Shown here piece by piece: positions 23,974 through 29,900 of a stretch of DNA of 64,000 nt. Position numbers: made by a program. Within the stretch, counting starts at the first letter, position 1. Each line of letters starts with the position of its first letter. This DNA is from Thermodesulfobacteriota bacterium (GTDB taxonomy: Bacteria; Desulfobacterota_D; UBA1144): positions 1-64,000 of the forward strand of contig JAYYZJ010000002.1 of the NCBI GenBank assembly GCA_036340075.1. The letters run 5' to 3'.

Positions 23974-26900
23974 TACCTGGGCAACAAAAGCGGGAAACGG
24001 GACTCGAACCCGCGACCCTCTGCTTGGAAGGCAGATGCTCTAGCCAACTGAGCTACTCCCGCACTCTTGTTAATTTGGGGATAGATGGATTCGAACCACC
24101 GTAGGCTTGCGCCGTCAGATTTACAGTCTGATGCATTTGTCCACTCTGCCATATCCCCATAGCTGGCGAAGGGATTTGAACCCCCGACCGGCTGATTACA
24201 AATCAGCTGCTCTACCACTGAGCTACGCCAGCAAAATCATAAAGCCGTATATTAACATAGTAGTAAAACCGTTTCAATGAATCTGAGATTAATCAGTAGA
24301 TAAGACAGTAGCTGTTATTTCAGCTTGTACTATCAACTTTTCATCTTTGTAAGCATTTGCTGAAATCTTAAAAATATTTAGTTTTTTTTTGAGCAAAAAA
24401 GCTTCTATAAGTAAGGCTTCGTCAGGGAATGTTGGTGATTTGAATTTAGCCTTATCTATCCCAACCAAGGCAGGTGCTTTTCCAAGTAAATCATCCTCAA
24501 ATGACTTATAAATCAAAACACCTCCTACTTGTGCCATAGCTTCCAAGATGATTACTCCTGGAACTACAGGATTGTCTGGAAAATGACCTTGAAAAAAATA
24601 GCTATTTTTATCAAAAGTAGACATAGCTTTTATATATTCTGATTCTTTAAGCTCGACTACTTCATCAACAAACAGAAAAGGATCTCTGTGAGGAAGATAT
24701 TTTTTTATTTCTTCTTTTGATAAAACCATAAGAATTACTTATTCATTCTTTCTAAAACTTTATCAGTTATATCTAATTCTGTATTCAAGAACATTAGACC
24801 TGGGGCTTCATTAGAAAAAACTAAATCGTATCCTAATTGTTCAGCAACAACTTTAACTTCAGAACCTAACAACCTTAAAATATCTCTTTGGAAACGAGAA
24901 TCAGCAATTCTAACCTCAAGCTCAAAATCCTCTCTCTTACGTTTTAGCTCATTAGCTTTGTATGCTAACTCTTCTTCCTTCTCGTCTCTTTTTCTTTCTT
25001 CTAATACTAATTTTTGTTCATTAAATGAGTTTCTTTTTGCATTAAATTGCTCACTAAGTTTATTCAATAAAGATTGTTTCTTTTCTATATTCGATCGAGC
25101 TTTCTTTATATAGTTTTGGCCCAACTTTGATTCTCTAAGTATCCTCTGGAAATCAACTGTGGCAACTTTAATTTGTTCAGGAGTTGCTGCTGCATCTATT
25201 GTGCTAAAAGCAAATCCGAATATTAATAAAAAAATAAATAATATTTTTTTCATATTAATTCTCCTTTTCTTTTATAAGCTAGAATAATGAGCCTATAGAA
25301 AATTGTACTTCGTATTTTGATTCTCCTGATCTTCTTTTTCCAAGTGGAAAACCAAAATCTAATTTTAAAGGACCCATAGGAGATAGCCATCTAAAACCAA
25401 AACCTGCATCCTTTCTCATATCATATGGATTATAATCTATATTTTTCTTTTCGTCATATGTTTCTCCAACATCTACAAACAAAATACCTTTTAAGCCTGT
25501 TTCTATTGCTAATGGATAAAGATACTCTAAAGAACTGTAAACATACTTGTTTCCACCAATTCTAACAAAATTTCCATTAGACAAAAATCTTCTTGGTGAA
25601 ACTCTTGCATATTTATAACCTCGTAAATTGTCAGGTCCACCCAAATAAAATCTCTCACTAACTACAATTTTGCTTCCCATGTTTCTGAAATCTATAAAAG
25701 CACCTTCAATTGAATAAGCTATAGTGTGATGTTTTTTTATAGACCAATATTTTGCGAAATCAGCTGTATATTTAGTAAATTCTAAATTGGCTCCTAATAC
25801 TTCATTAGATTCTTCAACATTTGCCCCTGTCGTCATACCTCTAGAAGTATCAACAAAGTTATCTCTTGTATCATAAAGTAACCCTAGGTTAATAGAACTA
25901 ATTTTATCTGTACCTTTTTGAAAAATTTCATTCGCATTAAGCTTTAAATCATCGATTGTAATGTTCTCATATCTATATGCTAGATTCGCAAATGTAAAAT
26001 AATTTAGAGATTTTCCGAATTTAACTCTTCCTCCCCATGAATCTCTATCATAATCAACATAGTCAAATAGTTTTTTGAATGCAACCAAACCAAATTGATA
26101 TTTAGTATCGAAAAAATATGGATCATTGTAATTGACATAGAAGTTTTTACTTAATCCACCGACGGTTGCGGAAGCTCCTAATTGTTTACCGTATCCCCAT
26201 AGATTGTTCTCTTGAATATTTGCACCAAACATTATCGTCTCAGCAGAACTATAACCTCCTGAAATAGCAAAATAGCCTGTTGATTTCTCTTCTACTTCAA
26301 TATTTAAATCAAGATAATTTTGTTTATCCGTGGCTGGTTTTTCAGTTATTTCAACCTTTTCAAAATAACCATTTCGATTAATCCTGCTTTTCGATGCTTT
26401 GATTGCCGAATAAGAATAATCATCATCTTCATTTACTTGAACTTCTCTTCTAATAACTTTGTCTCTAGTTCTTGTGTTACCTGAAATATTTATCAAGTTA
26501 ATTTTATATTTCTCACCTTTTTCTATTTCGTATTCCACATGTACCAAACGTTGTTCATTGTCCCTTTTAATATTTGGATTAACGTTTACGAAAGCATATG
26601 ATTTATTACCATAAACTTTGTTTAATGCTTCTATGTCTTCATTTAAAATTTTAGTACTAAAATATTCTGAATCATCTAATTTAATCTTTTTAAGTAGGAC
26701 TTCTTCTTCTTCGATTAAATCACCTTGTAGAGAAATTTTTCCGGCTTTATAACGATCTCCCTGTCTAGCCTTAAAGATGACTTTATATCCATCTTTTTCT
26801 TCTATGTATTCAATCTTTGATTGATCTGTTTTTGCATCAATATATCCTTTTTCAAGTAAGAATTGTCTTATATTGTTTTCGTCTAATTCAACTAAGCCAG

Positions 26901-29900
26901 TTGATAACCTTCCTCTCCCGGTAATAGGAGAGAAAAACCATTTTTCTTGTGTTTCCAATCTTTTAATAAGCTCTGGTGCATATTCGGAATCAATACCAAT
27001 AAACTTAATTCCTTTAACGTAGCCCCTTCTTCCTTCTACCACTCTTATTTCATATTGAATTTTAGATTCTCCAATTGGAACTATGTTATCAGTAACAACA
27101 ACTTTATTAAATCCTTTAAAGCGATAAAAACTTTCTACTATTGAACGAGAAACTTCTAAATCTTTTCTGCTAATTATTTTTCCTTCTTCTAAATTAAGAG
27201 CTTGCATTAAATCATCTGTTGTTATCTTGTCATTTCCCTTTATTCGAAAATCAGCTAGAATTGGATTCTCTTCTAATCTAAACAATATGTCTATCCCATT
27301 CTTGGTTTTTGTTGTCAGAATATCAATCTTATAGAAAAATCCTGTATCATAAAGACTTTTAATATCTTTTTTTATTTTTTCTGAATCATATTTTTCTCCA
27401 ATTTTTGATACAAGATATTGTTGTATCTTTTCATTTACAACAATTTTATTTCCATAGAAATCAATATTGGCAATTACGTCTGAATTATTAGTAGTCTCAA
27501 TAGATTTAACATCTTGTGTGTAAACAGAGATAAAAGCAAAATTGACAATAATTAATATGAATAAGAAGCGTTTCAATTTATTTTTCCATTATTTAATTCA
27601 TATACAATCTTAGTTTTTTTATAAACTTTATGGTCATGAGTTGCCATTATTATAGTTGTTTTATTTTTATCATTCAAATCCGCTAGATGTTCTACTAATT
27701 TTATTGCATTTATTTCATCAAGATTTGAGGTTGGTTCGTCAGCTATTAGTACTTCTGGGTTTAAAACTAGCGCTCTGCATAGCAATATTCTTTGTCTTTC
27801 TCCAGAGGATAAAGATATAGGTTTTTTCTCTAATAAATCATTAATTTTTGCAAAATTCACTAATTCTTCAAATTTCTCATTCCCCTTAGAAGCAAAACCA
27901 TTGATATACAAAGGTAGTAAAATATTATCCTTAACTGATAAATCTGGTACAAGTTGACTTAATTCGGACATAATTCCTATTTTACTTCTAAAACTAATCA
28001 GCTGATTGTAATTTGAGAATATTTCGAAATTGTTTTTATCTAAAAAATTGTAGTCCCCTGAATTTTGCTTTGATATTAATGATAAAATATTCAACAAAGT
28101 TGATTTACCAGATCCTGATGGTCCAATAATTGATACAAATTCTCCTTTATTGATTTTTAAAATTACTTTATCTAAAATCATTTTTTTACCAAATTGTTTA
28201 CATAAATTTTTAACTTCTATAATCATATCAGGACTCTCTCCTAACAAGTGATTCTAAATCTTTATTAAGTAAAAACATTGATGGCAAAAAAGAAGATATT
28301 GCTATTACAAGCAATGAGAAAATAGTTATTTGAATAAAATAATCAGGATAAAGAATTATTGGAAAACCATCTATTTGATAAAAGGAAATATCAATTGATA
28401 GCTTATTCATTAAATCTGTTCTCAGCAGTACGAAAATTGCTAAAGCTGCAAGCAATAATCCAATGATTACACCAATGAACCCAACTAGTAATCCTATGAT
28501 TGTAAAAATTAATATCAGAGATTTCTTTTTGGAACCAAGCAATAACAGTGTTCCGATTTCTTTTTTCTTTTGTGTTATCAAGCTAACCATATTCGAGTAT
28601 ATAGTCGTAGCAGAAATAAGTATCAAGAAAGACAAAAAAATAGCTAAAGATAATCTTTCAAGATTCATCAATTTGAATAAACTAGAATTTATAGTTTGCC
28701 AGTCAACTATTTTAAATTTTAAATGGCTATACTTTTTTAAAATTAATTCTTTTACTTTCTTAGAATCAAAAGGGTTAATTAGAAATATTTCTAAGAAAGA
28801 TTTTCCATCTTTATTAAAGAATTTGTAATAGTCATTTTCAGTGAAAATCTTATCAAAATTATTATCCGGCTCACTTATAATACCGACAATAATGCCTTCA
28901 ATATTTTTTATTCTAGTTATTTTTTTTGACAAATCAGGCAATAGTAATTGTATCTTGTCTCCTATATCTTTTTTATGTTGAGAAGCAAACTCGTCAGTTA
29001 TATTTATTGGAATCTGATTCTTTTTTAAAATTCTAATATTATTGCTGTTAACAATCTTATTTCTTCCTTTGATTTGTACGATTTTAAATTCTTCTTTATC
29101 AACAACCCCTGAATAATATTCAAAAGTTCTACTAAAAGATTTTATTCCATTTATTTCTTTGAGATTAATTGGCTCTTCCGAATCTATTATAATGTGTGGG
29201 AAACTCTGTATGATTTTTTCTTTTACTTTAACTTCAAAACCCTTCATCACAGAAAGTACTAAGATTAAAGAAAAAACTGAAATCGCTATTGCGCTAATAG
29301 AAATAAAAGCTGGAATAGAATTTTGTTTTGAATTAAAAATGTTTTTTAAATAATTTAGTATTATAAGCTTCTCATATTTCATTCATTTCTCATATGCGGG
29401 AACAAAATAACATCTCTAATCGATGCACTATTGGTTAGAAGCATAACTAATCTATCTATTCCTATACCTGCACCTACAGTTGGGGGCATGCCATATCTTA
29501 ATGCGTTAATATAATCTTCATCCATATCATTAGCTTCTTCGTCACCCTTTTCCTTTTGTTTCATTTGCTGCTCAAATCTTTCTAATTGATCGTCTGGATC
29601 ATTAAGCTCAGAAAATGCATTTGCTATTTCTTTTTCATTAATAAATAATTCGAACCGATCTGCTATTCTATTGTCTTCATTGTTTCTTCTAGCTAAAGGG
29701 GAAACATCTATAGGAAAACCATATACAAATACTGGATTTATATGATTTTGAAAGAATTTTGTTTCGAAAATTTCTGTTATAGCTCTACCCGGGATTTCAA
29801 AATGATTGATTTTCATTTTGTCTGCTTCGGATAATATCTTTTTTTCTTCCGATAGAACATCAAAACCAAGATCCTTGGAAAGCCACTCAATCATATGAAC

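Follow-up and report, generated by a model that had tools for sequence, protein, structure and literature searches.

Diderm bacteria that lack lipopolysaccharide (LPS) are already known, and in the spirochaetes LPS has been lost in some genera of an otherwise LPS-making phylum. Borrelia burgdorferi, as described in an excerpt of PMC13721041, is a diderm that has BamA and lacks LPS; its lipoproteins are processed by Lgt/LspA/Lnt-type enzymes, and those at the surface are presumed to occupy its outer face. Passages of PMC10160955 report BamA and no lpx genes for Thermotogae and Deinococcus-Thermus, with a fused Lpt-like permease in Thermotoga, and part of the Witwinowski preprint places these groups in the Terrabacteria, with OmpM/SLH tethers. 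Sphingomonas has a glycosphingolipid outer membrane, and Caulobacter survives without lipid A and has anionic sphingolipids, according to excerpts of PMC13721041 and PMC9393093. In E. coli K-12, where LPS genes and outer-membrane assembly genes share a cluster, the order is bamA-skp-lpxD-fabZ-lpxA-lpxB.

The window, the whole stretch of 64,000 nucleotides that was analysed, carries an outer-membrane biogenesis cluster on the minus strand at 24289-29382, which encodes a LolC/E-like permease, a LolD-like ATPase, BamA, Skp and FabZ. BamA (25279..27576) has five POTRA domains (Pfam POTRA, 5 copies) and an Omp85 barrel (Pfam Omp85 1.3e-54); it reaches 557 bits on TIGR03303 (cut-off 297) and is matched by E. 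coli BamA in phmmer at 4e-46. It is followed by the periplasmic chaperone Skp/OmpH (24735..25253, Pfam OmpH 1.2e-21) and by FabZ (24289..24729, Pfam FabA 2.8e-26, 136 bits on NF000582 with a cut-off of 113). The genes bamA, skp and fabZ thus share order and orientation with the E. coli cluster, whereas lpxD, lpxA and lpxB are gone and the upstream neighbours are the Lol-like ABC pair and lysS instead of rseP. The gene for lysyl-tRNA synthetase, lysS (29379..30854, minus strand, Pfam tRNA-synt_2 1.6e-95), keeps its position upstream of the cluster in 6/6 other genomes of the phylum. As the gap between skp and fabZ is 5 bases and a minus-strand cluster of tRNA-Thr, tRNA-Tyr, tRNA-Gly and tRNA-Thr (23911..24232, ARAGORN) directly follows fabZ and closes the operon, there is no space for lpxD, lpxA and lpxB or their remnants, and none were found at 24289-29382; this bears out the first-pass annotation, which had described these neighbours as missing. 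An 81-aa ORF at 23973-24218 was rejected as a gene, since it overlaps the four tRNA genes and its apparently conserved alignment consists of translated tRNA genes.

The same operon order was found in 6/6 further genomes from four families, confirmed by Pfam, and also in genome L016, there by ORF sizes only; the syntenic site for lpxD/lpxA/lpxB is unbroken and gapless in 7 genomes. With fabZ directly behind skp, the order is that of E. coli minus the three lpx genes, which suggests that their absence is a secondary loss; judged from synteny, this would have taken place in the ancestor of the phylum.

We searched 120 genomes of the phylum, including that of the present stretch (G000, 92.9% complete), with six-frame HMM searches, in which a loose first-look filter preceded HMM scoring, so that very divergent or non-homologous enzymes would escape; counts are matches over the curated cut-off. 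Most of these genomes are metagenome bins, 94 are of high quality (at least 90% complete, at most 5% contamination) and 23 are single contigs. The phylum lacks lipid A synthesis (LpxA/B/C/D/K), Kdo-8-P synthase, Kdo transferase and the LPS export bridge (LptD, LptF/G, LptA/LptC/LptD_N). No genome exceeded the cut-off for LpxB (0/120, one weak match of 15.6 bits), the LpxD N-domain (0/120) or LpxK, for which 16 genomes gave matches of 16-18 bits near the N-terminus of the profile (about positions 7-71) that we read as matches to a nucleotide-binding motif. The same holds for the N-domain of Kdo transferase (Glycos_transf_N, 0/120, one weak match), LptF/G (0/120, four weak matches) and LptD (0/120, one weak match containing stops), although the LptD model is insensitive, being positive in just 2/14 control genomes, and its zero is weak when taken alone. 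The OstA fold (LptD_N; LptA/C/D_N) was found in 0/120 genomes and Kdo-8-P synthase in 0/120 at E<=1e-50, LpxL in 0/5 complete genomes tested, and matches to the KdsB family in five complete genomes reached just 20-30 bits, on frames of the size of other nucleotidyltransferases. The controls of these searches were positive in E. coli and Caulobacter and usually in Synechococcus and Bacteroides, and Omp85 (BamA) was detected in 119/120 genomes and in 94/94 of high quality. LpxC passed the cut-off in 1/120 genomes and the LpxA C-domain in 1/120, both on contig G119:C175, which belongs to a 78%-complete bin and has a GC content of 36.5%, against 31.8% in G000. The first-pass annotation had correctly put both hits on one contig of this bin but gave its length as about 1 kb, where we find 2171 bases; contamination is the likeliest reading. 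Apart from this contig, each of the phylum-wide Lpx, Kdo-transferase and Lpt absences claimed earlier held on re-testing.

An independent phmmer search, run unfiltered with 22 E. coli queries over the complete set of 6546 six-frame ORFs from G000, recovered BamA, FabZ, MlaE and MlaF, and returned nothing at E<=10 for LpxB, LpxC, LpxK, LptA/C/D/F/G, WaaA, WaaQ, KdsC and KdsD. The LpxA and LpxD queries matched only GlmU and a PglD-like acetyltransferase. E. coli Skp missed the Pfam-recognised Skp of G000, so searches with a single sequence have limited reach. For about 488 soluble ORFs in G000, coverage came from the six-frame searches and phmmer only, outside the protein Pfam scan.

The genes retained serve the insertion of beta-barrels, chaperoning in the periplasm, the maturation of lipoproteins, TolC-type efflux, uptake through TonB and lipid trafficking by Mla. 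Besides the cluster, G000 encodes BamD (81.7 bits, cut-off 81.4), SurA-like (SurA_N) and DegP-like proteins, two TolC-like (OEP) proteins, AcrB, an IAT_beta domain, TonB, ExbB/D, a TonB-dependent receptor with a Plug domain, a BBP2 porin, a Porin_O_P-like protein, MlaD/E/F (MlaFED) and the lipoprotein maturation enzymes Lgt, LspA and Lnt, so that the outer-membrane kit named by the earlier annotation was found again. Its LolCD-like pair is also present, but both members fall below the curated cut-offs and LolA has no match in G000. The permease (28228..29382, minus strand), of type VII with an FtsX domain and a reduced MacB-type periplasmic domain (Pfam FtsX 3.8e-15, MacB_PCD 8e-4), has lolCE as its best NCBIfam match (131 bits, cut-off 362), and its orthologues of about 432 aa adjoin bamA in 6/6 genomes; the ATPase (27573..28247, minus strand, Pfam ABC_tran 2.8e-29) reaches 156 bits on the LolD model against 308. 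By sequence, the pair would be a divergent LolCD. G000 also has a small LapA_dom protein (32 bits), which weighs against an LPS-free reading.

That the phylum is diderm with an LPS-free outer membrane, as first proposed, is a prediction from gene content that is well supported by the absences and by the near-universal BamA. We put at about 80% the probability of the overall explanation, that the cluster is the core outer-membrane operon of a streamlined marine bacterium and that its whole phylum (said to be Dadabacteria/Desulfobacterota_D) has lost LPS; the cells would be diderm, with an outer leaflet free of lipid A. Borrelia burgdorferi and Treponema likewise combine BamA with the absence of LPS, and G000 has Lgt/LspA/Lnt; unlike in the Spirochaetes, the absence spans the 120 species genomes of the phylum, bar the stray G119 contig, and surface exposure of the lipoproteins is putative here. 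Our Thermus, Deinococcus and Thermotoga controls were positive for BamA and not for LpxC, but also positive for LptF/G and the OstA/LptD_N fold, whereas this phylum shows 0/120 for both, so that even Lpt remnants are missing. The phylum further differs from Thermotogae and Deinococcus-Thermus in its Lol-like pump and in OmpA-type domains, which occur in 4/5 large, complete genomes.

An artefactual absence, with Lpx/Lpt genes lying in regions lost from the bins or missed in low-GC, fast-evolving genomes, is highly improbable. The predominance of bins, the lpxC and lpxA of the G119 bin and the non-exhaustive filter speak for it, but the genes are missing from all 23 single-contig and all 94 high-quality genomes, and because 23 genomes are single contigs, bin incompleteness cannot explain the pattern. 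Joint binning loss is also implausible for genes that are normally spread over several loci, the intact lpxD/lpxA/lpxB site in 7 genomes argues against it, the same pipeline detected BamA, MIPS and TamB in the same genomes at 1e-50 to 1e-100, and the unfiltered phmmer search on G000 is concordant. We regard it as very unlikely that the second layer is a protein-rich sheath with lipid patches of the Thermotoga toga type, which would make leaflet composition the wrong question. Thermotoga, with BamA and no lpx in the passages of PMC10160955, offers a precedent, and G000, in which TamB, OmpA/Pal and LolA gave no match, has few apparent means of supplying lipids or tethering the layer. However, TamB is present in 5/5 of the larger, complete genomes, no SLH/OmpM-type gene appears among the Pfam scan results (no search aimed at one was made), and Mla, TolC-type ducts, TonB-dependent receptors, porins and a full triacyl-lipoprotein pathway are kept, a set typical of the classical lipid outer membrane of Gracilicutes.

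The outer leaflet might instead contain a dedicated glycolipid, lipid A-like or of another kind, that functions like LPS. Its enzymes would be unrelated to those of the Raetz pathway, or too diverged to be recognised, and its export would not involve Lpt. G000 is rich in glycan genes for its size, with four DUF6311 paralogues, a PMT_2-like GT-C, GT2, GT4, a Wzx-like flippase, GtrA and the GDP-mannose pathway, and has several conserved membrane proteins without a family. This is nevertheless very unlikely, as it needs the simultaneous replacement of about sixteen independent families and no conserved candidate pathway was found; DUF6311 occurs in 0/5 complete genomes of other families (in a search whose control was positive nowhere), so the cluster is not phylum-wide.

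Under LPS loss, the outer leaflet would most likely consist of ordinary glycerophospholipids, lipoproteins and glycosylated surface proteins. Its phospholipids may be PE, made by the Pss and Psd that G000 encodes, and an inositol phospholipid made by MIPS, a PIP-synthase-like enzyme and a PgpA-type phosphatase. Delivery in the larger genomes could proceed by TamB/AsmA-type bridges; in G000, where neither TamB nor, among the hydrophobic ORFs scanned, an AsmA-family Pfam match was found, this task would be left to Mla, perhaps together with the Lol-like pump. This resembles Sphingomonas and Caulobacter in that LPS is there replaced or dispensable through another anionic or glycosylated lipid. 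Unlike these sphingolipid makers, G000, the one genome examined for it, has no serine palmitoyltransferase, and its sole alpha-oxoamine synthase is BioF (TIGR00858 458 bits, cut-off 426), in a bioB-bioA-bioF operon.

The inositol-lipid genes are phylum-wide, with MIPS in 117/120 genomes and both a PIP-synthase-like protein and a nucleotidyltransferase-CDP-alcohol transferase fusion in 5/5 complete genomes. Part of PMC9246714 names the same set of functions for the Bacteroides/mycobacterial pathway and a proposed CDP-inositol alternative, and reports that Bacteroides BT_1525, annotated as PgpA, is a PIP phosphatase. Like that pathway, G000 has MIPS, the PIP-synthase-like transferase, a PgpA-family phosphatase, an LPG_synthase_TM-like protein and the fusion, but the genes are scattered and not clustered, and the best NCBIfam matches of the transferase, AIP and PIP synthases, are below cut-off (135 against 180 and 113 against 170 bits). 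The PgpA-family protein (57964..58413, minus strand, Pfam PgpA 1e-39), outside the operon, is by analogy a candidate PIP phosphatase of this pathway. Alternatively, these genes may yield the solute di-myo-inositol phosphate, and a role in the outer leaflet is putative. On the phage-like contig C11, the gene earlier called Kdo-8-P-synthase-like reaches 110 bits on the KDO8P-synthase model (cut-off 314) and passes that of DAHP synthase with 288 bits (cut-off 268), and thus scores as a DAHP synthase.

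The outer membrane assembly locus occupies 24289-29382 on the minus strand of the window and is preceded, in transcription order, by lysS (29379-30854, minus strand). It begins with an FtsX-type ABC permease carrying a weak MacB-type periplasmic domain (28228-29382) and an ABC ATPase (27573-28247), followed by BamA with five POTRA domains and an Omp85 barrel (25279-27576; 557 bits on TIGR03303, cut-off 297), Skp/OmpH as recognised by Pfam (24735-25253) and FabZ (24289-24729; 136 bits on NF000582, cut-off 113), all on the same strand. The first-pass annotation had called the transporter pair LolCD-like; the Lol models are indeed the best NCBIfam matches, LolC/E for the permease and LolD for the ATPase, but the scores fall far below the cut-offs, 131 bits against 362 and 156 bits against 308, respectively. 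Directly after fabZ come the genes for tRNA-Thr, Tyr, Gly and Thr (23911-24232), and beyond these tRNA-Trp and nusG-rplK-rplA-rplJ-rplL-rpoB. An 81-codon ORF after fabZ (23973-24218) was discarded, its apparent conservation in an alignment being that of translated tRNA genes. The annotated order in E. coli K-12 is bamA-skp-lpxD-fabZ-lpxA-lpxB. Comparison of the two gene orders, together with the tight spacing, indicates that the window holds the E. coli backbone minus the three lpx genes and with no room for remnants, since skp and fabZ are separated by five bases and the tRNA cluster abuts fabZ; the usual lpx neighbours are thus missing from this locus, as had been claimed.

The bamA region was also extracted from six other genomes of the phylum, belonging to families f4 (G019), f8 (G061), f9 (G090 and G101) and f2 (G012 and G009). 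In all six, lysS, the FtsX permease (about 432 residues), the ABC ATPase, BamA, Skp and FabZ are followed by a tuf/nusG ribosomal cluster, and no lpx gene was found in or beside the bamA cluster of any of them. Two genes escaped our simple ORF calling, skp in G090 and the ATPase gene in G012, and a gap of matching size stands at either place. The nearest named public contig (CAYTRR010000004.1), whose BamA is 86% identical, has the same gene order as judged from ORF sizes only; its submitter label, 'uncultured Spirochaetales bacterium', is at odds with an assignment to Dadabacteria. The tRNA genes differ in their surroundings: at 23627-24232 of the window the Thr-Tyr-Gly-Thr cluster lies directly before tRNA-Trp, presumably secE, and nusG, with no tuf between, the same four-tRNA cluster precedes tuf in the five loci where tuf was confirmed, and the EF-Tu gene observed in the present genome is that of the str operon on contig C1.

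In order to follow the absence across the phylum, 120 species genomes, including the one studied here, were searched in six frames; 94 of these have a completeness of 90% or more and a contamination of 5% or less, and 23 are entered as a single contig. LpxC and the LpxA C-terminal domain each exceeded the cut-off in one genome of 120. No genome exceeded it for LpxB (one match of 15.6 bits), the LpxD N-domain or LpxK, for which 16 genomes gave matches of 16-18 bits over profile positions of about 7-71, at the N-terminus, that we read as matches to a nucleotide-binding motif. Likewise, 0/120 genomes passed for the N-domain of the Kdo transferase WaaA (one match of 20.5 bits), for LptF/G (four matches of at most 16 bits) and for LptD (one 17-bit match with two stops), the LptD_N/OstA fold gave not even weak matches in the 120, and KDO8P synthase was found in none at E<=1e-50. 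All of the searches gave signals in E. coli and Caulobacter, and most of them in Synechococcus and Bacteroides too, as had been stated of the controls, but the LptD model rang in no further control (2/14), so that the LptD zero is a weak one. Among five complete genomes, each from a different family (G012, G019, G026, G061 and G090), LpxL was found in none, and the KdsB family reached only 20-30 bits, on other frames of nucleotidyltransferase size. None of the Pfam scans of ORFs from the present genome returned an Lpx, Lpt or Kdo family. A 97-residue LapA_dom protein is present (32 bits); this is a small membrane domain, which we do not read as evidence for LPS on its own.

As an independent check, 22 annotated E. 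coli K-12 proteins were translated and compared by phmmer with all 6546 reading frames between stops that span 40 codons or more in the present genome. BamA (4e-46), FabZ (8e-31), MlaE (2e-31) and MlaF (7e-40) were recovered, and nothing was returned at E<=10 for LpxB, LpxC, LpxK, LptA, LptC, LptD, LptF, LptG, WaaA, WaaQ, KdsC or KdsD. E. coli LpxA and LpxD matched only GlmU and a PglD-like acetyltransferase (1e-5 to 1e-7), and KdsB gave a marginal match (0.0035) on contig C11. Single-sequence searches have their limit, since E. coli Skp missed the Skp that Pfam recognises. Taken together, the two kinds of search bear out the absence of the Raetz enzymes LpxA/C/D/B/K from the phylum, save for a single contig, and uphold that of Kdo transfer and of LPS export, the latter with the LptD control as its weak point.

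Two sets of genes need separate mention. The sole LpxC and LpxA matches of the phylum lie together on one contig (G119:C175), where the 3' end of lpxC is accompanied by lpxA and a gene for a GFO/IDH/MocA oxidoreductase; its length is 2171 bases instead of the roughly 1 kb reported earlier. The bin to which it belongs is, as had been noted, 78% complete with 3% contamination, the remaining 17 genomes of its family have neither lpxC nor lpxA, and the GC content of the contig is 36.5%, that of the genome studied here being 31.8%. Contamination is the most economical reading of this contig. The other set lies on C11 of the present genome, a contig of 49.7 kb of which about 30 kb consists of ORFs without a family, among them a 3173-residue tape-measure-like protein, SSB and the large subunit of a class I RNR. 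These are followed by a surface-glycan cassette of two sulfotransferases, LicD, a capsule glycosyltransferase, two small cytidylyltransferases, a protein with RPE and CBS domains, a DAHP-synthase-type enzyme, a CTP_transf_3 protein and an RraA-like aldolase, and the contig looks like a phage or prophage with sugar-modifying auxiliary genes. The first-pass annotation had listed Kdo-8-P-synthase-like and CMP-Kdo-synthetase-like genes here. The former claim falls, because the DAHP_synth_1 protein clears the cut-off of the DAHP-synthase model but not that of the KDO8P-synthase model, and no Kdo-8-P-synthase gene of this kind occurs across the phylum at the E<=1e-50 threshold; as to the latter, the CTP_transf_3 protein scores 44 bits. 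Given the DAHP-type gene beside this protein, the RPE-CBS protein and the aldolase, the region may conceivably be a phage-derived ulosonic-acid cassette.

The outer membrane itself appears to be well equipped. In the present genome 1001 ORFs were called. Pfam scanning covered 134 of C1, C2 and the beginning of C3, 338 from the remaining contigs that contain a hydrophobic stretch, and another 34 on C11, with about 488 soluble ORFs outside this set. In agreement with the kit described earlier, we found BamA, Skp, two SurA-like proteins (SurA_N), a DegP-like protease and a borderline BamD (81.7 bits on TIGR03302, cut-off 81.4), two TolC-like OEP proteins, one of which adjoins HlyD and a MacB-type permease, AcrB with its adaptor, TonB, ExbB and ExbD, and MlaF/E/D. 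Predicted barrels include a BBP2 porin, a Porin_O_P-like protein, a TonB-dependent receptor with a Plug domain, a MipA family member and an inverse-autotransporter beta domain (IAT_beta). The full triacyl pathway of lipoprotein maturation (Lgt, LspA and Lnt) is present, as is a normal set of genes for peptidoglycan and division. Across the phylum, Omp85 was found in 119/120 genomes and in all 94 of high quality. Two half-transporters on C9 were considered as MsbA, but scored 289-314 bits against a cut-off of 602; SmdA/SmdB fit about equally well, and the pair is therefore no evidence for lipid A flipping.

Further reduction is seen in the marine family f1, to which the present genome belongs. 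Most larger genomes of the phylum have two Omp85 matches; in f1, 15 of the 18 genomes with Omp85, the present one included, have a single match, and three (G102, G106 and G117) gave two candidates at first look. TamB occurs in all five complete genomes of other families (frames of 1174-1301 residues) and gave no match in the present genome; an OmpA domain occurs in four of these five (not in G026), and no OmpA/Pal-type domain was found here. The LolA Pfam model had no match in the present genome, a model that rang in only 5/14 controls, and among the hydrophobic ORFs scanned no AsmA family member was seen at E<=1e-7; membrane ORFs of the chromosome to which no family could be assigned are all at most 545 residues long. 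If the pattern is borne out, the only recognisable carriers of lipid or lipoprotein between the two membranes in this genome would be Mla and the Lol-like pump.

Diderm bacteria without LPS are known. Passages in PMC10160955 describe the outer membrane of Deinococcus-Thermus as devoid of LPS, and Thermotoga as having no lpx genes and a fused permease that unites LptF/G, LptA and LptD-like domains, and a passage in a 2026 review (PMC13721041) adds Borrelia, which has surface lipoproteins, and Sphingomonas, which has glycosphingolipids. Our Thermus, Deinococcus and Thermotoga controls ring for LptF/G and LptD_N and not for LpxC. Unlike these organisms, which keep LptF/G and the OstA fold, the phylum has neither (0/120 for both), so that the loss of LPS appears to be more complete here. 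The data on gene content support the earlier prediction of a diderm phylum with an LPS-free outer membrane, to which we assign a probability of about 0.8. A whole phylum of this kind would count as an unusual case within a known class, that of LPS-free diderms, and not as a new class. We found no statement in the literature that Dadabacteria lack LPS, although the supplementary tables of large envelope surveys may cover the phylum; the principal genome study of marine Dadabacteria (PMC8115339) contains no word that begins with 'lipid', 'membrane', 'LPS' or 'Gram'. Nor did a cultivation or imaging study that might show the two membranes come to light, although no literature search was directed at this question.

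With regard to the lipid that might take the place of lipid A, the present genome has CdsA, Pss and Psd, a predicted phosphatidylethanolamine route, along with two PlsC-like acyltransferases and an inositol monophosphatase. It also carries MIPS, a myo-inositol-1-phosphate synthase (C12:164667-165890, 322 bits), a 269-residue PIP-synthase-like CDP-alcohol transferase (C12:176479-177288), a fusion of nucleotidyltransferase and CDP-alcohol transferase with a resemblance to IPCT/DIPPS (C5:160283-161521, 83 bits) and a PgpA-family phosphatase recognised by Pfam (57964-58413 of the window). The best NCBIfam matches of the 269-residue protein stay below their cut-offs, at 135 bits for archaetidylinositol-phosphate synthase (cut-off 180) and 113 bits for PIP synthase (cut-off 170). 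MIPS was found in 117/120 genomes, in 93 of the 94 of high quality and in all 32 genera, and rings in only 3/14 controls; homologues of both the PIP-synthase-like protein and the fusion are present in all five complete genomes. E. coli PgsA gives only matches of E~1e-3, so that no close PgsA is seen in the 93% of the genome that is assembled.

The gene set corresponds to characterised bacterial genes of inositol-lipid synthesis. Passages in PMC9246714, where inositol lipids are described as relatively rare in bacteria, give the Bacteroides route as MIPS (BT_1526), PIP synthase (BT_1523) and BT_1525, a phosphatase that bears the annotation PgpA, and propose an alternative through a nucleotidyltransferase and a CDP-alcohol transferase. 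On the strength of phylum-wide MIPS, the homologous transferases and the Bacteroides route, an inositol phospholipid is a plausible candidate for the role of anionic lipid in these membranes, and a place for it in the outer leaflet would be pure inference. The product of these genes could instead be a solute, di-myo-inositol phosphate. Other replacements were also considered. A sphingolipid of the Sphingomonas type is excluded for the present genome, in which BioF, encoded in a bioB-bioA-bioF operon, is the sole alpha-oxoamine synthase and the three class-I aminotransferases are of the HisC or Asp-aminotransferase types. With regard to ornithine lipids, the two PlsC-like acyltransferases reach only 30-48 bits on the OlsA/OlsF models. 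A DUF6311/GDP-mannose cluster was considered as a phylum-wide glycolipid pathway, but DUF6311 was found in 0/5 complete genomes of other families, a soft zero given that the family control rang nowhere, and it is therefore clade-specific at most.

Lipid A is regarded as the defining feature of the Gram-negative outer membrane, as an essential target for drugs and as the chief signal of such bacteria to innate immunity. An abundant marine and sponge-associated phylum without LPS machinery would be a natural experiment on the minimal needs of an outer membrane, would be informative on how phospholipids reach it, and bears on the prediction of envelope type from metagenomes; the cells are predicted to give no lipid A signal to hosts such as sponges. 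What would stand out, as far as gene content can tell, is the phylum-wide extent of the loss, the lack of any Lpt remnant and a conserved inositol pathway as a testable candidate source of lipid, and this universal pathway offers lipid chemists a specific target. We regard as unlikely the fuller scenario in which a Gracilicutes phylum has exchanged lipid A for a leaflet of anionic inositol phospholipid, maybe decorated by periplasmic GT-C enzymes and joined by lipid-anchored proteins, and in which the marine clade runs the smallest outer membrane biogenesis kit known, of BAM, Mla and the divergent Lol-like pump beside bamA; the pump or Mla would in that case have to move lipid outward in bulk.

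Several other loci of the present genome are of note. The glycan cluster that runs from 53274 to 64000 of the window and on to C2:68801 is unusually large for a genome of 0.96 Mb. It contains a ManC-like protein, two GT2 enzymes, GDP-mannose 4,6-dehydratase, MipA, two unknown membrane proteins of 415 and 425 residues, three tandem DUF6311 paralogues (558-567 residues) and a PglD-like acetyltransferase, and a fourth DUF6311 copy lies on C6 (L043:16986-18710). A Wzx-like flippase, a PMT_2-like GT-C enzyme and GtrA are found on C8 (L051:5605-9983). Finally, four MORN-repeat proteins of about 200-240 residues, each with a hydrophobic segment, are encoded on C4 (L033:13168-15368) and C5 (L038:16313-17745).
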